Shown piece by piece: positions 1 to 18,712 of a stretch of DNA of 64,000 nucleotides. The DNA comes from a virus (lineage: Duplodnaviria; Caudoviricetes): IMG/VR virus record IMGVR_UViG_3300049988_000286, positions 160,001 to 224,000 of that record, one strand, 5' to 3'. The notes below the pieces were generated by a model that was given only the letters and a program-made list of their open reading frames with translations, had not been told where the DNA came from and searched no databases. Within the stretch, counting starts at the first letter, position 1; every line of letters starts with the position of its first letter. The translations under genes were made by a program, and so were the position numbers.

Positions 1-28
1 GCACGCGGTAAACTTCGCGGGAGATATC

Positions 29-247
29 ATGCATAAAGGTCTGGAACAAGCGACCCTGCTCTGGGTCGAACTTCATCCCTACTGGCAGACCGCCGATCAC
101 TCCGGCTTTATTCTGGGAGTCTATTACTTTGTCGCCGTCCCATTCATCACCGAGACCATCAATGAAATAGGGCGGGTCGGTGACGCAGAGATGCACCGAA
201 GAGTCTGGGATATTCTTGAGTGCGGTAAGGGCATCGCCATTTATTAG
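29..247 (+). CDS. hypothetical protein, 72 aa
   Basis: ORF with GGGAG SD-like sequence upstream; no recognisable motif. Confidence 0.4.
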   Translation: MHKGLEQATLLWVELHPYWQTADHSGFILGVYYFVAVPFITETINEIGRVGDAEMHRRVWDILECGKGIAIY

Positions 248-383
248 TTGAACCATGCCCTGTTATACTTGGCGGCGGGACGTGCTCGCAATATTGTCCC
301 GCCGCCAAGGGCATGGTGGTTGCTTGAAAGTGCTCGATCGTTGCGGCGAGCATGTTGTAGAAAGTTTCCCGAAAACTTTAGCC

Positions 384-393: not shown

Positions 394-1206
394 ATGGACG
401 ACTTTAATGACGGCTCGGTTCGCCTATTTCACGGCGATTGTTTAAGCAAGATGCAAGAGATCGCCGATCAGAGTGTTGAATTAATACTATGTGATCTCCC
501 CTATGGGACAACTGCTTGTGCGTGGGACTCGATCATCGATCTCAATGCCATGTGGTCCGCGTATCGCCGCATCATCACACCAACGGGCGCGATCGTGTTG
601 ACTGCCGCCCAACCATTTACTTCGGTGCTCGCAGTCTCAAACCTCGAATGGTTCAAATACACTTGGGTGTGGGAAAAGAATCGACCCACCAATTTCGCAC
701 ATGCCAAGAACAAACCAATGAAGAAGCATGAGGACATTCTAGTATTCTCTCCCGGAACTACGGTTCACAAGAGCCAGAGCAAAACGCGGATGACATACAA
801 CCCACAGGGAGTGCAGCAGATCACTCCGAAGAAGGTAACGAAGAAAGCGAGCGAGAAGACCGACGCTTTCTTCGCAGACCGCCCCGGTCACCGAGAGTTC
901 GAAAGGAAGGAGGCGGGCTTCCCGCACTCTATCTTGACCTTTGCTACTGACCAGCTTGGTCTCCACCCCACGGCAAAGCCCATCGACCTCATGCGCTATC
1001 TGGTGCGGACCTACAGCAACCTCGGCGAGACTGTGCTCGATAACACGATGGGGAGTGGTTCCACCGGTATCGCGGCAGTCATGGAAGGACGCAAGTTCAT
1101 CGGGATCGAGCAGGATGACCACTACTTTGAAATGTCGCGACGACGGATAGTCGAGGTGAGTGAGCCCAACCCCGTCGAGGACGGGGATGGGATTATCATC
1201 GCCTGA
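394..1206 (+). CDS. DNA N4-cytosine/N6-adenine methyltransferase, beta class, orphan
   Basis: catalytic motif IV ILCDLPY near the N-terminus; HPTAKP; SAM-binding motif I VLDNTMGSGSTG near the C-terminus. Confidence 0.9.
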   Translation: MDDFNDGSVRLFHGDCLSKMQEIADQSVELILCDLPYGTTACAWDSIIDLNAMWSAYRRIITPTGAIVLTAAQPFTSVLAVSNLEWFKYTWVWEKNRPTNFAHAKNKPMKKHEDILVFSPGTTVHKSQSKTRMTYNPQGVQQITPKKVTKKASEKTDAFFADRPGHREFERKEAGFPHSILTFATDQLGLHPTAKPIDLMRYLVRTYSNLGETVLDNTMGSGSTGIAAVMEGRKFIGIEQDDHYFEMSRRRIVEVSEPNPVEDGDGIIIA

Positions 1207-2110
1207 AGTCGCGCAGAGCATCTGGGAGAGACGAGTAGGTCTTGAGTTTAGTCACGCGGTCACGAAAATGATAAAGGTTCTCGTGACCCGCCTCGCGAAC
1301 CAGCGACATATGCGATTTCGCCAGCCATGTGTTGAACACCTCGCGATCGTCCGGAATAGCCTTGACATTGGTTTGCCTACGCAGCAGCGGCACTTCATCT
1401 TCGTAGCGTTTGATGATTTGGCTAAAACTCGGCCAGTCTGATGGCCCAGATAGCGTGATATTGTCCGCCCTGATCATTGTCATGCCGAAGTGATTACCGC
1501 TACCCGCATAACCGAGTAAGGGTATTTGATCGAAGTTGAAGCCGATCAGAGCACTCATTAACAGCATCACCCAAGCCTCTGCTTTCGTGTCGCGCTTATC
1601 ATAGTGGCTGACGATTTCCGCCATTGCCTCTGGATAGAGACGCGAAGCGTTGTCGTGGAACCACGCGCAGAACGTGCTACGAGACCATTGCGTGATGGTG
1701 ACCACGACCGTGGCACGCGGTGCAAGATGGCGCGAGAGTGTCCTCTCAATCCACAGACCAATATCTGGGGTGATCCCCGACATGAGATCGAGGTTGACTA
1801 GATCGTAGGGCTTTGTGGGAACGAAGCATTCAACGGGTGTATGGATGATTTCGATCCGGTCAGCACCGACCGAGCCGTTAAGATAAAGACGATCTCGGGT
1901 TTTGCCCATGTGAACAAGCTCGGAAGTTTCGTGTTCGATCCACGTCTGCTCGGTCTGCGCCGTGATAGCATCGAGGCGTAGCATGTCACGGACATCGAGC
2001 GCCTCTCGGCCCGGCAAGGTCAGGAGGCTCTTGTAGGGCATACGAGGAAGTGTACCAAACACGATCTCCCGCGCATCATTCTTGCCGTCATTATCGTAGT
2101 CGAGCATCAT
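1196..2110 (-). CDS. putative class I SAM-dependent methyltransferase-fold protein, 304 aa
   Basis: LLTLPGREALDV (motif I-like), WIEHE (acidic strand-2 end), YDLVNLDLM (motif IV-like); ATGA overlap with the upstream helicase. Confidence 0.5.
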   Translation of the reverse strand: MMLDYDNDGKNDAREIVFGTLPRMPYKSLLTLPGREALDVRDMLRLDAITAQTEQTWIEHETSELVHMGKTRDRLYLNGSVGADRIEIIHTPVECFVPTKPYDLVNLDLMSGITPDIGLWIERTLSRHLAPRATVVVTITQWSRSTFCAWFHDNASRLYPEAMAEIVSHYDKRDTKAEAWVMLLMSALIGFNFDQIPLLGYAGSGNHFGMTMIRADNITLSGPSDWPSFSQIIKRYEDEVPLLRRQTNVKAIPDDREVFNTWLAKSHMSLVREAGHENLYHFRDRVTKLKTYSSLPDALRDFRR

Positions 2111-4383
2111 GCCATTTTACTCTTGGAAATAGCGACCTGATGCGATTCGCGACGGTGTAGGCTGCGCGCGCTGGGGCCGACTTTAACCGGCACCACGACG
2201 TTCTCGGGAGTCTCCTCGAACTTGATATACTCCCTATCAACCAGCATGGTTACGAGGTGAACCACAGGGGTGCCGCTGCGTAGATCGAACGAAACGCGAA
2301 ACCGACGCTTTTTGGCATCGAGGAGCGTGGTGCGATTGTTGTGGCCGCTGGTCTTCCGGCCCCCCTTGCCGCCGTACTTGATGAAGTGATTACGGATGTC
2401 GATCTCGACGTGCTTCTGCTCGTTGACAGGATAGTGCACCCCATCTGGGCGCGTAGTGCCCGGACGCAACAGCTTCGCGCCAACACCAGCCTTCGTCATC
2501 GCATCTTGCAGATCACCCCAATACGGTCCCACAATAGCTTCGATGTCGAAGTTGAGGTAACGCGAGCGGGCAAGGTCGGACGGCGCGGACGTGACCGGAC
2601 CCTTCGCCCATGAGAGTTTGGGTACCGGGCCGTTTGTCTGGATAACCTTGGCTTCTCCAAACTGTTTGTGCCCCACGTTGACCTTCGCCTCTCGGTCGTC
2701 GCGCCTCACGACGTGTCCGAACACGTCGGTAAATCGCTGCCGAAGAGCCGTGAGGTGTTTGTATTCGGATTTGGTGAAATCGATGATAACTTGGTCTAGC
2801 GTCTGGCCGTTACGCGGCAAGAAGTTTTCCATGACAATCGAGTTACTGCCCGGATTCTTACGTGGAATCTTCTCGTGATACTTGTCATAGTCGCGGCGAA
2901 ACAGCCCGATCATCTTTTCGTTCTCGTCGCTCACGATCACCATAGTGGACCGCTGGTCGATAATCTTGAACCATCCACTCATGCGACCCATCGTGCCCTG
3001 CTCCATAGCGATGGTGTTGCTGAATGCGTCAGTGAAGTCGAACGCGAGGGTGCATTCGGCGGGAACGCGATCCTGTCGCCGAGCCGCCCCTTTCACGACG
3101 ATCAGGCAATAACCGTCGTTCTCTGCTAGCACGTCATCGATCTGCTTGTATCGCTTCTGCCCCGGCAGTAGCCGACCCTTGCGCTTCATATGCGTGTCGT
3201 AGAATGGGACCAGCTTGATCCCTTGCTTGCGCAGGATGGGTTCAACGTGCTTCTCGAAGTGGGCAGTCGTTGCCGCCGACCCCACGCGCACGATCCCTGC
3301 ACGACCGCCATTGAACTTTAGGCCGTTGAACCCACGGCGGGACGGTGGGTTCATGCAGCATTCGTAAAGCACCTCTGCGAGTAATTCCGCCTGAAGCCGA
3401 GCGTCCTTCTTGCGGTGCGTGTTGTTGCTCGACAGGTTCGCCGTATAGCTGGCCAAGGTGAAATCTGCGAAGGCAGGGTTACGAACGAGCTTCGACACGG
3501 TAGTGAACCCAAGCACGGGGGTTCGTTTACCCGCAACGGTACCGCAATATCCGCTGTTTGGATCGATGTGAACTTTGTAGTGTTTATAGTTCTCGATCTC
3601 CCTGTAGGGGTAGCTGGTCGCCGAGATGAGCAATAGGCGCACCTCATAACCACGGTTGCGAAGCTCGACCATCCAGCGATCAAGAACACTGTTGATACCG
3701 CTCGCGGCGTCACCCTCGTCGATGACTAAAGTGATGATTGTGGCTCCGATTTCCGTCGCGCCAGCATCGATCTCGTCGATAGGTGTTTCAGTCGAGCGTT
3801 TGAACGACTTGATCAGCCCGTTCTTGCAAGCGTCTTGGATGGTGTAGACCTCGCCATCGAGGTGCAGCGAGGCGTGCAGATCGACGAAATCTTCGAGGTC
3901 GTTGTTGGTTTGATCGGCACCGATATTTTTACCGGGGTTGACCAGTGCAATATACTCGGGGTTGCCGTCACGCTCGTTAAGCAACGCCCGAATACCGACA
4001 GCGAAAATCGAGGATACGGTCTTGCCGTATTGTGTCTCCGCCTCCAGCGCAATGTGGCTGGTGCTGTCAAGCAGAGACAGCATGTTTGCGACGACCTCGC
4101 CCTTATCGACATGGGGCATGGCACCGGGATAGGAACTGATAACCTCGAACGCCGTTTCGCTGCGCAACTGCATCTTGGCGTAGATTTCTCGCTGACGCTC
4201 CACCGAGAGCTTTATGTGCAGTGAGTGCGCAAGCTGGGCGTCAACGGCGACCTCTTGGAAGTCGTCGTTGAGGAAGGTGGTCAGGTGATCGAGGTATTGG
4301 CGATGGCCTTCGCCAACGATCCGCTGCATATCGCGAACGGTGAACGTCGCCTTGTCGTTCTTGATGCGAGATCGGATGGCCAT
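2107..4383 (-). CDS. SF2 helicase-like ATPase, Z1-domain/restriction-subunit-like
   Basis: Walker A AETQYGKT, Walker B LVIDEGDAAS, motif III ISATS, motif VI QGTMGRMSGW; start 4383 chosen for coupling to the upstream stop (4416 is the alternative). Confidence 0.7.
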   Translation of the reverse strand: MAIRSRIKNDKATFTVRDMQRIVGEGHRQYLDHLTTFLNDDFQEVAVDAQLAHSLHIKLSVERQREIYAKMQLRSETAFEVISSYPGAMPHVDKGEVVANMLSLLDSTSHIALEAETQYGKTVSSIFAVGIRALLNERDGNPEYIALVNPGKNIGADQTNNDLEDFVDLHASLHLDGEVYTIQDACKNGLIKSFKRSTETPIDEIDAGATEIGATIITLVIDEGDAASGINSVLDRWMVELRNRGYEVRLLLISATSYPYREIENYKHYKVHIDPNSGYCGTVAGKRTPVLGFTTVSKLVRNPAFADFTLASYTANLSSNNTHRKKDARLQAELLAEVLYECCMNPPSRRGFNGLKFNGGRAGIVRVGSAATTAHFEKHVEPILRKQGIKLVPFYDTHMKRKGRLLPGQKRYKQIDDVLAENDGYCLIVVKGAARRQDRVPAECTLAFDFTDAFSNTIAMEQGTMGRMSGWFKIIDQRSTMVIVSDENEKMIGLFRRDYDKYHEKIPRKNPGSNSIVMENFLPRNGQTLDQVIIDFTKSEYKHLTALRQRFTDVFGHVVRRDDREAKVNVGHKQFGEAKVIQTNGPVPKLSWAKGPVTSAPSDLARSRYLNFDIEAIVGPYWGDLQDAMTKAGVGAKLLRPGTTRPDGVHYPVNEQKHVEIDIRNHFIKYGGKGGRKTSGHNNRTTLLDAKKRRFRVSFDLRSGTPVVHLVTMLVDREYIKFEETPENVVVPVKVGPSARSLHRRESHQVAISKSKMA

Positions 4384-4384
4384 C

Positions 4385-4753
4385 TTACTTCGTCGCCCGG
4401 AGAGAGTAAGTGCCATCGTCGTTCTTTACGAGGGGGCCAGTCTTGGGTAGGTTTTTGCCGCGACGCGAACCTTCGTTCTGCAACTCGACGAGAGCCCACG
4501 AAATGGTGTTCTTCGTCTCGGGAGTACCGCCGATACGCTCCCGAATCTGGTTAGCGGTAAGCGGCTTACGTGTGAGAGCCTTGAGGATGGGGGCGTGAAA
4601 ATCGGATGCCTTGGCATCCGACTTGGGGAGTGACTTTGGACCGCGTTTTGCGGGGCCGGAGATGGTAGAAAGGGTGACGGCGATCTCACCATCTGGCTGC
4701 ATCGCACCGAAATCGACGCGGAGCGCCTCACCTGCGTTCAACACCATGTGCAT
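4385..4753 (-). CDS. winged-helix DNA-binding protein, 122 aa
   Basis: ILKALTRKPLTANQIRERIGG...TISWALVELQNEG...LVKNDDGTYSL pattern; SD GAGGAGA 7 nt upstream of ATG 4753. Confidence 0.6.
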   Translation of the reverse strand: MHMVLNAGEALRVDFGAMQPDGEIAVTLSTISGPAKRGPKSLPKSDAKASDFHAPILKALTRKPLTANQIRERIGGTPETKNTISWALVELQNEGSRRGKNLPKTGPLVKNDDGTYSLRATK

Positions 4754-4849
4754 AAAAGATTCTCCTCTTGAAACCGAGGGAACTATCATACTTTTGTGAG
4801 TTTGCAAGCGAAAACTCGCAACGACATAAGGTGCTGTGGGTGCCTTTCC

Positions 4850-4981
4850 TTACTTCTTGGAATGGTCACCTCCCCGACACCCGCACTCCGCTTCCTCGGG
4901 AGTGTCTCCCAACATCTCCCTGACCTCGCGGCACAGGGCCTCGTCCTTCTCCGGTGCTTTGTGCTTCTCACCCTTGCTCAT
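4850..4981 (-). CDS. small hypothetical protein, 43 aa (MSKGEKHK...)
   Basis: GGAGG SD upstream; fills the gap between the endonuclease and wHTH genes. Confidence 0.5.
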   Translation of the reverse strand: MSKGEKHKAPEKDEALCREVREMLGDTPEEAECGCRGGDHSKK

Positions 4982-5807
4982 GCTCTTTCCTCCAATGGAA
5001 TTTACCGGCAGTCTTTGCCTGACCGTTGACGCACATCTGGATGCTGGACGCTGCAATCCCAGTATTTTTAGATGCCTCTGTGCAAGTTCTAAACGAGGCT
5101 ACCTCGCTACCGTCCGGGTTCAACTGCACGATCCGGTAATCAGTCTTCTTTTGACGATGCACGATCGGTGGGATCACTTCCACGTTGTGGCCCATCTTTG
5201 CTTGGATCACCAAACCGTCTTCAGTCCGCGTAGTACGGCTTTTACCTAGAAGCACCTGATTGAGAAGGCGATAGTCGATACCAAGTTCCGTCGCCGCCGA
5301 CCTCTGTGAGGTGTATTGCCCAATCGGTACACCGTCAGCGCCGTAAATCGTTACAGGCTTCGAAAATCGATCTGTCATGTCAGGCCGCTTTCGGCCCACG
5401 TTGATTTTGTTGCCAATCTTCTTCTCGGACATGATCGCTTTGGTGGCTTCCGTGTGGCGAAGGCCGTTCGCACCCTCTCCACCAAGGGTCAGGTTCGCAA
5501 GAGGCCCGGTGCCGTCACAACGCCTTCCAATTTGACCGATAAGCGCAATCTCGATCGCTTGGGCCATCTTCTCGGTCTCAACCGTCGCAAGGACATCTTC
5601 TACGATCTTCAGCCCATTCCTCCACGCCTTCCTGATAATATGCGCTTTGATCGTCTTGGCATCCCGCTTTCGAGCATCACAGAGATGCTCATTGAGACGA
5701 CGAGAACCGACAAAAGAGATGCCGATGTAAAAGGGGACTTCTTGTCCCTCTACTCGCAATTGATAAACATAATGTGACACGATGCTAAACTCCGATAGAA
5801 AGATCAT
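4968..5807 (-). CDS. free-standing GIY-YIG homing endonuclease with NUMOD3/NUMOD1-like DNA-binding repeats
   Basis: YVY..FYIG, RRLNEH, IEIALI, LANLTLGGEG, HTEATKAIMSEKKIG, FRTCTEASKNTG. Confidence 0.8.
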   Translation of the reverse strand: MIFLSEFSIVSHYVYQLRVEGQEVPFYIGISFVGSRRLNEHLCDARKRDAKTIKAHIIRKAWRNGLKIVEDVLATVETEKMAQAIEIALIGQIGRRCDGTGPLANLTLGGEGANGLRHTEATKAIMSEKKIGNKINVGRKRPDMTDRFSKPVTIYGADGVPIGQYTSQRSAATELGIDYRLLNQVLLGKSRTTRTEDGLVIQAKMGHNVEVIPPIVHRQKKTDYRIVQLNPDGSEVASFRTCTEASKNTGIAASSIQMCVNGQAKTAGKFHWRKEHEQG

Positions 5808-5837: not shown

Positions 5838-7217
5838 CTACGCAGCCGCGCGATCCCTCACTTCGGCAAGCGTCGTCGAACCGACCGCAAGACCATCGAG
5901 GAAGCGTCGCTTGAGGAGGTCGCCTTCCGCGCCGTAAGCGACGGTGACGATTTGACCATCAATGCGCACCACCGAGAGGCGTCCGCGCTTCGAGCGCTTG
6001 CTGTGATCACCCACCGGGTCTTTGTAAACGTCGATCCACTCACCGTTGATGCGAGCCGCGCAGCACTTCATGGCGAACTTGAGATCATCGCGGTTGACGA
6101 TCTGGAGCAACCCGCCGCCCATGCCGAAGGCAATATTGTCGAGCGAGTAGCCAGCCGCCAAGACGTTCCGGATGAGGATCAGGAGCGTCTTGTGCGTGAT
6201 CCCATCTCCTTGGATGATCCGAACCGCCGGGTTGAGGACGCGAAAACCTTTGCTGTTGACGGTGTGGCCGAACGCCGCATCGAGGCGCTGTAGGATTTCC
6301 ACGGGCACCATTGTGGGGTCACCACTGTCAGGACGAACGACAACGACGGTGCCGCTATCGAGCACCTCTTGTTTGAGTTCGACGCCCCAGATGTTCGACA
6401 CCGCATTGTAGATGTCGTAGCTGTCCGAGACGGCGGAGATCATCACGCCGCGACCACCCAGCTTCGTCATCATGTTCCGATACGCTTGCGCCTCATGCGA
6501 GCGACCGAAGCTGGTGACCGTCGAGTGCTCCATCGCCGAAATCGAGTTGCCGGGCATCTCGTCAGCGTAGAAGCGACGCCCCGCCACGAGCGCTTCGAGG
6601 GTGTCGGTTCCACGGAAGTTGACGAGATGAGCGATCCCGCCGATTGCGGCGCTCTCGCCGCTTGACACGCCGCGTGCACCGAAATCGTGAAGCTTGAAGG
6701 GGATTTGACCCTGCGGATCGTCGGAACTCTCCACGAGGCCGTCCATGATCATCTGGCGGCACATGTAGGAATTTGTAGCTACCGTCGTGGGATACCAGAT
6801 GGCGCGAAGCAGCGCGGTTTCGAGGAACGAAGTCAGCCAGAAGAACTCCGGATCGGTGTTGACGATGGTGACGAGCGGGGTGCCGGTCGGCACAACCATG
6901 CCTTCGTCGATCGCGCGAATCTCCACCGGGAGCCTACCACCGTGCTTATCGACGAGAAGCCGCCATCCCTCTTCGAAGAAGGGCACGCCATAGAGGGGCG
7001 ACATCGCGACGGCCTCATCGACCATCGCGTGGGTTACGGGATTGGTGAGGATGCGATCTCGAAACATCTGAAGACCGAAGTAGCAGATACGATCCCAGAT
7101 GCCGCCACGGCTCTCGATGTAGGAGTAAACGTACTCCGTGCCTCCGGGGTATTGATATGCGTGCGACCACTTGTAGCCGTCGCTCATGATGCAGATGTTG
7201 TCGGTAAAGGTAGTCAT
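5838..7217 (-). CDS. nadV: nicotinamide phosphoribosyltransferase (NAMPT)
   Basis: SDGYKWSH, LHDFGARG, SAMEHS, VVVRPDSGDP, IIQGDG, FGMGGGLLQ; the track start ATG 7235 lies inside the SD, so 7217 is preferred. Confidence 0.95.
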   Translation of the reverse strand: MTTFTDNICIMSDGYKWSHAYQYPGGTEYVYSYIESRGGIWDRICYFGLQMFRDRILTNPVTHAMVDEAVAMSPLYGVPFFEEGWRLLVDKHGGRLPVEIRAIDEGMVVPTGTPLVTIVNTDPEFFWLTSFLETALLRAIWYPTTVATNSYMCRQMIMDGLVESSDDPQGQIPFKLHDFGARGVSSGESAAIGGIAHLVNFRGTDTLEALVAGRRFYADEMPGNSISAMEHSTVTSFGRSHEAQAYRNMMTKLGGRGVMISAVSDSYDIYNAVSNIWGVELKQEVLDSGTVVVVRPDSGDPTMVPVEILQRLDAAFGHTVNSKGFRVLNPAVRIIQGDGITHKTLLILIRNVLAAGYSLDNIAFGMGGGLLQIVNRDDLKFAMKCCAARINGEWIDVYKDPVGDHSKRSKRGRLSVVRIDGQIVTVAYGAEGDLLKRRFLDGLAVGSTTLAEVRDRAAA

Positions 7218-7238
7218 GATAATGGAATCCTCCATTAA

Positions 7239-7261
7239 GCCGCTCCATTCACCGGAGCGGC
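7239..7261 (-). promoter_or_regulatory. RNA hairpin GCCGCUCC-GGUGAAU-GGAGCGGC in the NAMPT leader
   Basis: perfect 8-bp stem; same loop as the hairpin at 8406-8428. Confidence 0.55.
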
Positions 7262-7271
7262 GGGGTTGATA

Positions 7272-8381
7272 TTACTTCTTCGGGGTCTTGAGCATTGCCT
7301 TGAGGGTTTCGATGATCGCGAAATGATCCTCGAACATCATCTCCGACTTGATGTCCGCGATAGGAACCCAGCGAGCCACCTTGGCATCGCTGCGACCCTT
7401 GACCTTCGGGAGGGGTCCATCTTCCAGCTTGATCAGGAAGACTTGCGAAACGACGCGGCCACGATCGCTGCGGTAGGGATAGTTGGCATTCATCTGGCCA
7501 ACCATCCCGCCCTTGAGGCGACTGTTATTCACGTCGATCTTGGTCTCTTCGCGAAGCTCGCGGATGAACGCATCTTCGTGCCATTCGCGGTTTTCGAGGA
7601 AGCCTCCGGGAAGCGCGAGCAGACCCTGCCCCGGAATGTTCTTTCGCTCGATGAGGAGCACGTGCCCGCTCTGAACCACCATGGCATCGACAGTGTTGTG
7701 AACGACCGTGGGGCGGAAACCGAGTTCCTTCTCCACCATGTCAGCAGCCTTCTCGAAGGCCCGGCGATAGTTCTGGTTGTAATCGACTTCGCGGAACAAG
7801 TGGGAAAGATCACCGCCACGCAAAAGATCACGGATGGTAGCGTTGGTGCCAAGCGGAACGCTCTTCGCCGATTCAGGTGACCACCGCTTTGATGCATACA
7901 AGGCGTCGCGCATGTTGGTAGCCGAGAGGTTATCGTGAAGGCTCTCAACCCCGATCGACTCCCACTGCGGGAACATATCGAGGAAGAAATGATTCCCCTT
8001 CTCGTCCTTGGCGTGCCCGATCAACGCGATCTTGGGCTTGTTTTCCCACGGACCGGTATCGTCGATGACGCGCGACATCGCGGACTGAACGTCCTCCTGC
8101 CATTGCAGATTGGAGTAAGGAGCGTCTCGAACAGCGGAGATCAGGATACGATCATGGAAGCGCGGATCGAACGATCCACGGATCATCTCCTTGACTTCGT
8201 TGAACGAGAAGGGAGAGCGCTCCGTGCGCGGCTGGAAGCACGAACCAACGATGACGTGGACGTACTTGGAGCGGGTGAGCGCAATTTCGATGATGCGATG
8301 GTGAGCGTTGTGGAAGGGGCGAAACCTGCCGATAAAAACGCAAAAATCGTACTGGCCCCCATCGGGGCGGTCGTCTGACAT
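7272..8381 (-). CDS. nadM: bifunctional NMN adenylyltransferase / Nudix ADP-ribose pyrophosphatase (NadM-Nudix, NatV-like)
   Basis: FIGRFRPFHNAH nucleotidyltransferase motif, IGHAKD, LSATNMRD, Nudix box GGFLENRE..RELREET, GRSDA, MFEDH. Confidence 0.92.
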   Translation of the reverse strand: MSDDRPDGGQYDFCVFIGRFRPFHNAHHRIIEIALTRSKYVHVIVGSCFQPRTERSPFSFNEVKEMIRGSFDPRFHDRILISAVRDAPYSNLQWQEDVQSAMSRVIDDTGPWENKPKIALIGHAKDEKGNHFFLDMFPQWESIGVESLHDNLSATNMRDALYASKRWSPESAKSVPLGTNATIRDLLRGGDLSHLFREVDYNQNYRRAFEKAADMVEKELGFRPTVVHNTVDAMVVQSGHVLLIERKNIPGQGLLALPGGFLENREWHEDAFIRELREETKIDVNNSRLKGGMVGQMNANYPYRSDRGRVVSQVFLIKLEDGPLPKVKGRSDAKVARWVPIADIKSEMMFEDHFAIIETLKAMLKTPKK

Positions 8382-8405
8382 TATATCCTCCATCAGAAGG
8401 GTTGC

Positions 8406-16396: not shown

Positions 16397-17083
16397 TTAC
16401 ACGCGAGGGAAGGCCTCTCCACTGCGATAATGTGGGTCGCCTTTGAGGTGATCGTTTATCAGCATAACGACGACGCGGCAGTTGGCTTTGCTCAACAACA
16501 GGGCCTGACAGGGCTCGTTGGGATGAATGACTGCGTTGCCGCGATCAACGAAACCCGCGTAACCGAGGCGACGCAGCATGGAGTTCCAGATGATGTGCTC
16601 CTCCCGACCGAGCAGCCTTTCCGCCCGCTTGGCGATGCGGTGAGTGAGGTTCCAGAATACCTCACCGGTAGTGTTGTAGTTGTGGTAGAGATCACCGGTC
16701 CAACCCTCGATCATCGATAGGGCGAATTGTTCGTTGTTGGCATCAACGAGCCGCCACAACTGGGTGCAGATACCGTCGTAGTCGTGCTCGAACTGGCTAT
16801 CGTCATACTCGCCGATATCGCAAATTTCTCCCCGTCCCTCGAACAAGCAGACGTATTTTCGATCGGAGGCGAATGGGATCGTGGATTCGCGCATCATCTC
16901 ATAGGCTTCCCGCAAGGGGTAGGCGTAGATACCGATCGGCGTTGAGGTATGCTGCGTCGATGGATTGATCCCCAGCTTCTCAATATCGACGAAGGATACG
17001 AACATGTTGGGTCGATTGAGGTATTGGGCGAGCACCGACATCGCGGTTTCGGAGCGACGCTCCATGAGGTCAAGGAGGATCAT
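16397..17083 (-). CDS. hypothetical protein, paralogue 2, possible ADP-ribosyltransferase-like fold, 228 aa
   Basis: FVSF..KLGINP..TPIGIYAYP...LRRLGYAGFVD..IHPNEPCQA. Confidence 0.75.
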   Translation of the reverse strand: MILLDLMERRSETAMSVLAQYLNRPNMFVSFVDIEKLGINPSTQHTSTPIGIYAYPLREAYEMMRESTIPFASDRKYVCLFEGRGEICDIGEYDDSQFEHDYDGICTQLWRLVDANNEQFALSMIEGWTGDLYHNYNTTGEVFWNLTHRIAKRAERLLGREEHIIWNSMLRRLGYAGFVDRGNAVIHPNEPCQALLLSKANCRVVVMLINDHLKGDPHYRSGEAFPRV

Positions 17084-18297
17084 CCCTCCACCCCGTGCGC
17101 GATCACGTCGGCGACTTGAGGGATTTTGGTGAATGCCTCGAAATTGTCGATGCGGGACGGGTTATGGAGCAAACCTTGTATATTTCCACGATCAAGGCCG
17201 CTCGCCAACAGTTCTCGCAATACATCGGAGTCGATCTTGCCTTTGGCGAAGGCGATGAGGTGTTCCTTCATCGAACGAAATTTCATCAATCGTCGGATAT
17301 GGTTCATCCTGTCGGGGAAGTCAGAATGACCAAGGATATAATCGATGATGTCAAATTCATGATTGCTGATGCAGAAGAAAACAACTTGGCTCTTTTGCTC
17401 ATCCGTGCATTTATCGAGGAAGCGGTACTTCATTGCTTGCTTCAAATTCGAATCGGCGTAGGAGTCGATGAAGCGGATCGTGTCATCGACGTTCGCAACA
17501 GTGAGGCGCTGGACGCGCGCCGCAGGGATGTTGTTGATCTCGCCGGTGGTGATCATCTTGACCATCGATGACTTCCACGTGTTCTGGACACGCTCGTGGC
17601 CGATCGATCGGTTGATGATCGTGATGGGCTTGATCACGCCGGGGTTGAAGATCACCGCCTGTGTGGGCTCATTCTCGTGGATGAAGCCATCGCCGCGGGC
17701 ATCGAAGGCGAGGTCGAAACCGATTTTGCGCAGGAGGGATGTCCACATACCGATCGAGGCCTTGCCCGGCTTGAGAGCGATCGAGAGAAGCCGGGTGGTA
17801 TTCCACAGCCATGCGACGGGCATCATCGCGTAAGCGGTGCGCCGTCCCTCTTCAGAAATCGTGTCGAGAGTCTCCACATCGATCAGGCGCAACTCCTCCA
17901 AGATGCGCATCTTCTCGCGCCACTCCGCCATGGTGAGGTCGCCGGTAAGTTCGCGCTTCAGCGGCGCAGTGACGCGGAAAACCCACGCATGGTCCCAAGG
18001 CGATTCGCCACTAAAGGGCACTTCGAGACCACCATTATAGTCACGCCCGTCGTCACCGAACTGCTCGGTATATTCGATGACATAATCAACCGGGTAGCAG
18101 TAAACACCTAGAGGTGTCTCGAAACCAGAGCGAGGATTGATACCAAGCTTGGCGGCTTTGTTCTTGCCAAACCCTTGTGTAAAACTGACGAAAACATCGT
18201 CCTCTCCGCGAAACTTTTCTAGCTGCTCAAGCGGAGTACCGGCGCGAGGATTACGCGCTGGATTAGACCGACGTTCAAAAAGGTCTTGGAGGAACAT
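17080..18297 (-). CDS. hypothetical protein, paralogue 1, possible ART-like fold plus helical C-terminus, 405 aa
   Basis: FVSF..KLGINP..TPLGVYCYP...LRKIGFDLAFD..IHENEPTQAVIFNP; start MFLQDLFER, 5 nt after TATAAATA. Confidence 0.75.
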   Translation of the reverse strand: MFLQDLFERRSNPARNPRAGTPLEQLEKFRGEDDVFVSFTQGFGKNKAAKLGINPRSGFETPLGVYCYPVDYVIEYTEQFGDDGRDYNGGLEVPFSGESPWDHAWVFRVTAPLKRELTGDLTMAEWREKMRILEELRLIDVETLDTISEEGRRTAYAMMPVAWLWNTTRLLSIALKPGKASIGMWTSLLRKIGFDLAFDARGDGFIHENEPTQAVIFNPGVIKPITIINRSIGHERVQNTWKSSMVKMITTGEINNIPAARVQRLTVANVDDTIRFIDSYADSNLKQAMKYRFLDKCTDEQKSQVVFFCISNHEFDIIDYILGHSDFPDRMNHIRRLMKFRSMKEHLIAFAKGKIDSDVLRELLASGLDRGNIQGLLHNPSRIDNFEAFTKIPQVADVIAHGVEG

Positions 18298-18302
18298 GCG
18301 GG

Positions 18303-18310
18303 TATTTATA
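18303..18310 (-). promoter_or_regulatory. late promoter, full T4 consensus TATAAATA
   Basis: exact consensus. Confidence 0.75.
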
Positions 18311-18319
18311 CCCACAAGG

Positions 18320-18712
18320 TCAGACGCTTGGGCGCATCCGCATCGAGGGGACGGCGCACACCTTCTTCGCATCGAGGAGCGCCACCAATGCGTGATCACG
18401 GCTCGGCTGGGTCGCCACTGCGGCATCAAAGTCGTCGCGGCGAACGATAAAGGCCCCGGCGTCCTTCATACCAATGAGGTAGAAGGCATCACCGTAGTGC
18501 CATGACACCGAGCACGCACCAACAAGGAGATCAGCGGCAGCGGCAGGGAGGGACGCGGTAACAATGCGGAGTTCGGGCTCGCCTCGCGGTAGCGACACCG
18601 TGATGGGGATGATCTGGAGCGGAATGTCGGTCGGCGAGGGCTTGGGCGGCAACGGAGCCGCCGTGGTGAGAAGGCTGCTGATTAGACCAATGAGAACCGA
18701 CGTTTTGAACAC
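18320..18712 (-). CDS. exported/periplasmic hypothetical protein, 130 aa
   Basis: N-terminal signal-like MFKTSVLIGLISSLLTTA, then a Pro-rich linker. Confidence 0.6.
   Translation of the reverse strand: MFKTSVLIGLISSLLTTAAPLPPKPSPTDIPLQIIPITVSLPRGEPELRIVTASLPAAAADLLVGACSVSWHYGDAFYLIGMKDAGAFIVRRDDFDAAVATQPSRDHALVALLDAKKVCAVPSMRMRPSV

Follow-up and report, generated by a model that had tools for sequence, protein, structure and literature searches.

A conserved phage module of an SF2-type ATPase, a predicted methyltransferase-fold partner and an exchangeable DNA methylase

Near the left end of a 64,000-nt stretch of viral DNA (the window; bases 160001-224000 of the 499,572-bp IMG/VR virus record IMGVR_UViG_3300049988_000286, which is judged complete) we find an operon for a superfamily 2 (SF2) ATPase and a partner protein with a predicted methyltransferase fold, adjoined by a separate gene for a DNA methylase. 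Comparison with related loci defines a conserved module, which consists of the motor, the partner and an exchangeable beta-class methylase. The genes at this locus are:

1..256, minus strand: start of a second PF01555 DNA methyltransferase (302 aa), which extends beyond the left edge of the window and is oriented divergently to the first.
394..1206, plus strand: 270-aa beta-class N6/N4 DNA methyltransferase (PF01555, E is 6e-26), convergent with the partner gene and sharing an 11-bp 3' overlap with it.
1196..2110, minus strand: 304-aa partner (P0002), with a predicted class I S-adenosylmethionine (SAM)-methyltransferase fold (residues 1-221) and a variable alpha/beta C-terminal domain (~255-304).
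2107..4383, minus strand: 758-aa SF2 ATPase (P0001), with a predicted N-terminal helical region, two RecA lobes (~100-510) and a C-terminal domain (515-758).
4385..4753, minus strand: 122-aa probable helix-turn-helix (HTH) protein; its gene opens the coupled operon, and an AGGAG lies 8 nt before the ATG.

The three minus-strand genes are coupled as a preliminary description of the window had noticed: the HTH and ATPase genes meet at TAA-G-ATG, leaving a 1-nt gap, and the ATPase and partner genes overlap by stop and start in ATGA. None of the three products is matched by a Pfam, PHROGs, PADLOC or NCBIfam model, apart from weak Pfam matches of the 122-aa protein (HTH_20, E is 0.017; HVO_A0261_N), and PDB sequence searches with the operon proteins returned noise only, the 122-aa protein being without a PDB match. 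The earlier label of a winged HTH draws on these weak Pfam matches, and we retain it in the weaker form of a probable HTH protein. The second methyltransferase (L011:5348-6256) matches PF01555 with an E-value of 4e-35.

The motor carries a Walker A motif (residues 115-122), a DExD-type box (221-227) and a Q...GR motif (462-470), so that all three helicase motifs previously read from the translation are present. An alignment of 31 family members keeps Q118, G120, K121, D222, E223, D225, A255, T256, R435, R436, Q462, G463, R467 and G470 invariant, and the motifs are thus real and selected rather than chance resemblances. An AlphaFold model (predicted local distance difference test, pLDDT, is 79.9) places a helical region at the N terminus, ahead of two RecA lobes and a C-terminal domain. 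Judged from its motifs and the two modeled RecA lobes, the 758-aa protein belongs to the SF2 helicase/translocase superfamily. A Foldseek search returned at least 500 SF2 matches to the model at E ≤ 1e-3 (best E ~1e-8), and the VIA matches (Z-scores of 12-17, up to 16.7) include RadD, DRH-1, FANCM, INO80, DinG, LlaBIII and RecG, none of them clearly ahead of the rest. Among viral models, uncharacterised SF2 proteins of giant viruses come nearest. By Pfam, 11 of the 31 relatives touch the DEAD family PF00270, two touch ResIII and none touches Z1.

Outside the ATPase core, the C-terminal domain (515-758) is present in nearly all relatives, with moderate conservation of some Asp, Gly, Pro and Arg residues. 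It contains no invariant nuclease-type set, no conserved acidic/lysine set lies outside the motor, and neither motor end matches a PD-(D/E)xK nuclease family. The preliminary description had seen no nuclease motif in the operon, and we find none either by family libraries or by C-terminal conservation; nor was a nuclease domain or conserved catalytic set found in the partner or in any conserved neighbor. One 1124-aa relative (P0014), from a locus for which no DNA was available, contains a HARE-HTH domain (PF05066, E is 1e-7) between motif III and the second RecA lobe. Among the long relatives we found no fusion of motor and partner. A complex prediction for the motor (1-758) and the partner (1-242) scored 0.64, compared with 0.54 for one unrelated control, and is not used as evidence.

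We compared the motor family with profiles of four SF2 families built from bacterial genomes (15 Z1, 14 HsdR, 14 RecQ and 14 SNF2 proteins). It aligns best with Z1 (hhalign 93.3%, score 71.9), followed by HsdR (82.8%, score 59.8), RecQ (10.3%, score 36.2) and SNF2 (0.1%, score 18.8); the Z1 and HsdR profiles themselves align at 33.8% (score 45.9). The confident local alignment with Z1 covers just 95 columns of the N-core, and that with HsdR covers 189 N-core columns. Under a permissive setting, the alignment with Z1 runs collinearly across Walker A, motif Ia, D-E-A-D-x-A-S, motif III, an aromatic-Gly motif and motif V, and takes in the G-R-x-x-G-aromatic portion of motif VI. Replacement of the first conserved Walker A glycine by glutamine is a stated hallmark of the DEAD-Z1 motor of H.CglI (PMC5861437). 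The corresponding Q118 is invariant in our family in an x-Q-x-G-K-T context, where the 15 Z1 proteins align V-Q-S-G-K-T. The resemblance to Z1 proteins that had been proposed by eye therefore stands as far as the best profile match and the Walker A variant are concerned. It does not extend to Pfam Z1 (PF10593), which has no match in the ATPase (E ≤ 1), in the 31 relatives (E ≤ 0.01) or in a six-frame translation of the 500-kb genome (E ≤ 1), nor to motif VI: Z1 proteins have a shortened Q-x-x-R spacing (PMC5861437), whereas here the spacing of Q462 and R467, at five residues, exceeds the canonical one, and only the G-R-x-x-G-aromatic part is common to both. In our reading of these profiles, the motor would form a separate family in the restriction-motor neighborhood of SF2 rather than being a Z1 protein.

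About a dozen relatives of the partner can be detected. Its model (pLDDT is 84) has the fold of a class I methyltransferase in residues 1-221 and, after these, a small and variable alpha/beta domain, in line with the Rossmann-type methyltransferase fold that had been suspected from its motifs. All top fold matches are methyltransferases (Foldseek E ~3e-8; VIA Z-scores of 12-14, up to 14.3, over residues 1-221). Those with the lowest root mean square deviation (r.m.s.d.) and the highest identity are the RsmD-like structures 3p9n, 2esr and 2ift (Z is 12.6-13.2, r.m.s.d. is 2.3-2.8 Å, 15-16% identity), with 3p9n at Z 13.2, 2.3 Å and 16%. The tRNA methylases Trm1, m1A58 and cmo5U also rank high. 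A profile alignment of the partner with 14 RsmD proteins is weak (hhalign 13.8%) and yet collinear over 115 columns, from an N-terminal K-N-x-x-R-E helix to strand 4. The RsmD family models (PF03602 / TIGR00095) give no Pfam match for the partner, and its profile comparisons with the O-methyltransferase family PF01596 (1%) and with PF01555 (10.6%) are not informative.

Conservation in the partner departs from that of a canonical enzyme. Two acidic residues are conserved as SAM binding would lead one to expect: E59, invariant and located where strand 2 ends, and E94, located after strand 3. The glycine loop after strand 1 is degenerate (L-P-[SG]-x-x-A-L), and at the DPPY position all 12 relatives have an invariant D108 followed by [LMT]-[ME]-[SCA], a motif that is conserved in its own right. 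The partner contains no (D/N/S)-P-P-(Y/F/W) or PC catalytic motif, as the preliminary description had stated for DNA methyltransferases, and its C-terminal domain is hypervariable. With acidic residues kept, the loop degenerate and the DPPY position altered, the partner is predicted to be a methylase whose active site is non-canonical or, alternatively, a pseudo-enzyme with SAM, DNA or both as ligands.

Both families are rare. An exhaustive HMMER search of 1.84 billion protein representatives located 38 relatives of the motor, and a word-index search of 5.8 billion proteins returned the helicase itself only. No match was obtained by tblastn among 50,697 sequenced phage records, pattern scans with the helicase alignment across IMG/VR and JGI metagenome contigs yielded no confirmed relative, and a partner-motif scan of one genome each of 185,579 prokaryote species found none. 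The family has been seen in phage-like metagenomic contigs only.

The pair recurs at 11 other metagenomic phage loci (L002, L003, L004/5, L006, L007/8, L009/10, one locus without DNA, L012, L013, L123 and L124), where the partner gene directly follows the motor gene and usually overlaps it. The helicases of these loci are 21-35% identical to that of the window. At each of the 11 loci with enough flanking sequence (the window among them), a PF01555 methylase is found no more than one or two genes from the pair. Its gene is convergent with the pair, with overlapping 3' ends, at five loci, divergent and upstream at another five, and downstream in tandem at the remaining one. Of just five PF01555 genes in the 500-kb genome, three are located at most 8 kb from the pair. 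The methylases at the pair loci come from different lineages, those of L123 and L124 being of the S-P-P-Y type. The window methylase (394-1206, plus strand), which has D-L-P-Y in place of D-P-P-Y, has relatives of 45-50% identity across many bacterial phyla and is 81% identical to L013:4159-4926, even though the helicases of these two loci share 24% and the partners 32% identity. This degree of methylase identity beside a divergent pair points to a recent exchange of the methylase cassette.

The HTH gene behaves differently. It has no homologue at any related locus, nor in the long N-terminal or insert regions of the motor's relatives, and in L123 the upstream coupled gene encodes a different, 115-aa protein. 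We have therefore rejected it as a conserved component and regard it as particular to this phage. The small genes upstream or downstream of the pair in related loci belong to no Pfam family. The preliminary description had presented the three operon genes as a unit and had tied that proposal to their co-occurrence elsewhere and to a Rossmann fold in the 304-aa protein. The predicted fold is there, and the ATPase and methyltransferase-fold genes do travel together, but without the HTH gene; the true third element is the adjoining PF01555 methylase, which had been left out.

The window further encodes a T4-type baseplate wedge, a hub and tail lysozyme, an SbcCD-like nuclease, NAMPT and NMNAT-Nudix, from which we conclude that the element, with a length of 499,572 bp and a G+C content of ~56%, is a very large T4-related phage. 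The contexts of all pair loci likewise look like large T4-type phages (gp9/10, gp23, NAD salvage). In the window, the pair is located in a methylase-rich accessory region adjoining the NAD-salvage genes NAMPT and NMNAT-Nudix (5838-8393, minus strand), a few kilobases away. The same two genes also lie a few kilobases from the pair in the distantly related locus L004 (L004:1-2189), and L009 has a NAD synthase gene near the pair. NAD-salvage genes and pair may share a counter-defence region. In L007 (10238-14809) and L008 (4131-8702), four co-directional genes 2 kb beyond the module, among them genes for a Cas6e-like protein (PF08798) and a DinG-type helicase (PF13307), resemble in their predicted products a phage-borne type IV CRISPR-associated set.

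Directly upstream of the operon lies a gene for a 279-aa homing endonuclease of the GIY-YIG + NUMOD1 / I-HmuI-like type (4968-5807, minus strand; Pfam, PHROG 314). As it is missing from related loci, it is probably a mobile insertion outside the module. A 43-aa open reading frame with a GGAGG box (4850-4981, minus strand), recognized by reading only, is situated ahead of the operon and overlaps the last part of the homing-endonuclease gene. Between this frame and the operon (4754-4830, minus strand), a G-C-T-T-G-C-A element is followed 12 nt on by a T-A-T-G-A-T box, an arrangement that, by eye, loosely recalls a T4 middle (MotA-box) promoter. A sigma-70 promoter scan gave nothing above shuffled expectation, and no T4-type late TATAAATA box was seen by eye upstream of the operon. 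Elsewhere in the window (16397-18429, minus strand), two late proteins start with a near-identical leader, M-[IF]-L-x-D-L-x-E-R-R-S, a putative capsid-loading tag; the leader is absent from all three operon proteins.

From the folds, motifs, gene coupling and conserved synteny observed here, we infer a DNA substrate, a physical complex, cooperation with the methylase and a counter-restriction purpose. DNA is the likely substrate of the motor, since its nearest relatives by profile are double-strand DNA restriction translocases, one relative has a HARE-HTH insert and a probable HTH protein is encoded in trans. Our preferred explanation, which we hold tentatively, is that the motor and a methylase or pseudo-methylase work together with the neighboring methylase on phage DNA, probably in counter-restriction. 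One coupled transcript would provide a two-subunit machine that is genetically tied to a separate beta-class DNA methyltransferase. The motor subunit, an SF2 protein of the restriction-enzyme type, would probably act as a double-strand DNA translocase; the partner subunit would contribute an RsmD-like fold that keeps the presumed SAM-holding residues E59 and E94 and is without DPPY. The motor would most likely carry this methylase-like subunit along phage DNA, and the complex, together with the neighboring methylase, could establish or safeguard phage methylation early in infection and so serve as a counter-restriction device. Its logic would be analogous to that of the DarB-type methylase-helicase dyad and of the ATPase-activated methylation of MANTIS, the families being unrelated. 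The free exchange of methylase lineages fits a helper for any methylase better than a cognate restriction specificity, and the explanation also fits the failure to find a nuclease, the phage-only distribution and the putative counter-defence neighborhood.

Several points weigh against this explanation. The partner lacks the glycine-rich loop and DPPY and hence may not methylate at all. At five of the 11 loci the methylase lies on the other strand and the 3' ends overlap, which is odd for the subunits of one machine and is the classic layout of antagonistic restriction-modification pairs. The nearest relatives of the motor by profile, DEAD-Z1 and HsdR, serve restriction rather than modification, and the motor is unlike the SNF2 motors of the DarB-type dyads (hhalign 0.1%). 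A DarB-like role as an injected protein appears unlikely because none of the three operon proteins has the putative capsid-loading tag, and we dropped this candidate. Finally, as all loci come from related T4-like phages, the synteny may in part be inherited rather than selected.

Some of the same observations are consistent with a restriction-like weapon, in which the motor and a methylase-fold subunit would read unmethylated host or competitor DNA and disable it while the methylase marks self. We consider this possible, although doubtful. CglI/NgoAVII (M + R + H) or the Type III Mod/Res enzymes would have a parallel layout, and the effector would be unrecognised or recruited. Such a weapon would account for the strict linkage of pair and DNA methylase (11 of 11 loci), which at five loci takes the form of convergence with a 3' overlap, as in many restriction-modification systems. 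A methylase fold without a catalytic motif could serve as a base-flipping reader, the hypervariable C-terminal domain of the partner resembles a specificity domain, and BREX is a precedent for nuclease-free, methylation-based exclusion. The motor family, moreover, aligns best with DEAD-Z1 and HsdR and has the same Gln-for-Gly Walker A variant (PMC5861437). Against such a weapon, no nuclease or other effector domain was found in the pair or its conserved neighbors, and PADLOC gave no match. The lineages of methylase and pair are uncoupled (81% compared with 24-32% identity), which is hard to fit with a matched specificity, and the partner family was not found in the 185,579 prokaryote species scanned, although prokaryote genomes are the usual home of such systems too.

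We think it improbable that the motor is an ordinary helicase for replication, recombination or transcription in T4-like jumbo phages, with a structural, non-catalytic partner and a methylase kept nearby by inherited gene order. The origin of all loci in related large T4-like phages makes inherited synteny possible, the top VIA matches include the repair and remodelling motors RadD, FANCM, RecG and INO80, and the nearest viral structures are the uncharacterised giant-virus SF2 proteins. Passive inheritance would, however, produce one arrangement, whereas the order, orientation and lineage of the methylase change while its adjacency to the pair persists; and a family with 38 members in 1.84 billion proteins that is absent from 50,697 sequenced phages is not part of core replication. 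Least probable of all is an RNA-directed pair, a DEAD-like RNA helicase with an RsmD-like protein that would modify or bind host or phage rRNA, tRNA or mRNA next to an unrelated DNA methylase: PF00270 (DEAD) is the sole Pfam family touched by many relatives (11 of 31), the lowest-r.m.s.d. matches of the partner are RsmD-like rRNA methylases with tRNA methylases ranking high, and its N-terminal K/N/R-E motif aligns with that of RsmD, but a DNA methylase adjoins the pair in 11 of 11 loci and three arrangements, which is unexpected for an RNA enzyme, RecQ is more distant from the motor profile than double-strand DNA restriction motors are, Foldseek and VIA point to SF2 in general rather than to DEAD-box helicases in particular, one relative has a HARE-HTH DNA-binding insert, and the amino-methylase catalytic motif that RsmD needs is not in the partner.

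If the pair assists methylation, as we tentatively prefer, phages too would use ATP-driven loading to outrun host restriction, and a processive DNA-modification tool might be gained. If it restricts, it would be a weapon of viral origin that is nuclease-less or has a new effector. Either way, two unnamed protein families are defined, and in a rare and conserved phage pair that all family libraries tried had missed, a restriction-type motor and a remodelled methylase fold are linked to exchangeable methylases. A more specific proposal, to which we give a rather low chance, is a phage-specific, nuclease-free, three-part machine in which the restriction-type SF2 translocase carries a catalytically remodelled methylase-fold subunit along DNA, where this subunit would be a base-flipping reader or a loader and would gate the exchangeable methylase. 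Such a machine would give the phage ATP-driven, processive self-marking or a methylation-dependent discrimination of foreign DNA. Methylation-based conflict between phage and host is usually told through bacterial restriction-modification, BREX, DISARM and MANTIS, and through simple orphan methylases of phages; to our knowledge, a three-part gated-methylation principle has not been described for viruses.

Comparison with known systems reveals partial likenesses to each. The CglI and NgoAVII restriction-modification systems combine M and R subunits with an H subunit that has a DEAD-Z1 motor (PMC4267653, PMC5861437). They share with our module the three-gene logic, in which a DNA methylase goes with an SF2 motor and with a small partner co-produced with this motor, as well as collinear motor motifs (the Gln Walker A, DEAD-x-A-S, an aromatic-Gly after motif III and a GR-x-x-G-aromatic motif VI). 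Their R subunit, however, is a B3 + PLD (HKD) nuclease, whereas the partner here has a predicted methyltransferase fold, and no PLD or other nuclease is found in the conserved neighbors of the pair. The methylase of the module belongs to PF01555, the C-terminal domain of its motor has no detectable similarity to theirs, and the setting is that of lytic phages rather than bacterial chromosomes. The N-core of the motor also aligns with Type I HsdR (hhalign 82.8%, 189 columns), and a methylase-fold subunit beside an SF2 motor recalls Type III Mod and Res. Unlike these enzymes, the motor has no detected PD-(D/E)xK domain, the partner is without DPPY and without an obvious target-recognition domain, and a separate methylase, active-looking by its sequence, is encoded beside the pair.

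RsmD-like amino-methyltransferases (16S rRNA m2G966) provide the lowest-r.m.s.d. fold matches of the partner and are collinear with it from the N-terminal helix to strand 4. The partner differs from them by D-[LMT]-[ME]-[SCA] in place of DPPY/F, a degenerate glycine loop, an extra C-terminal domain and a gene that is coupled to a motor. The DarB-type methylase-helicase dyad of phages and conjugative elements (Iyer et al. 2017, PMC5512222) is likewise a mobile-element combination of an SF2 ATPase and a methyltransferase fold, and has been proposed to couple translocation to modification or protection against restriction. There, a single polyvalent protein fuses a SWI2/SNF2 ATPase to an EcoKI/TaqI-like adenine methylase with LPD36; here, two separate genes encode an RsmD-like partner without N/D-P-P-Y and a motor that does not align with SNF2 (hhalign 0.1%), and no capsid-loading tag is present. 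In MANTIS (Gao_RL) defence, an ATPase and a co-regulator are needed for methylase loading and activation (bioRxiv 10.64898/2026.09.23.753747). This likeness is one of logic only, as a precedent for DNA methylation that depends on an ATPase and an accessory protein encoded beside the methylase; the families are unrelated (an AAA+ ORC/Cdc6-type MtsA and a DUF3870 MtsB), the effector is a PLD-helicase and the system is bacterial. What we report is a real, conserved and previously unannotated phage module, in which known kinds of parts are combined in a new way.

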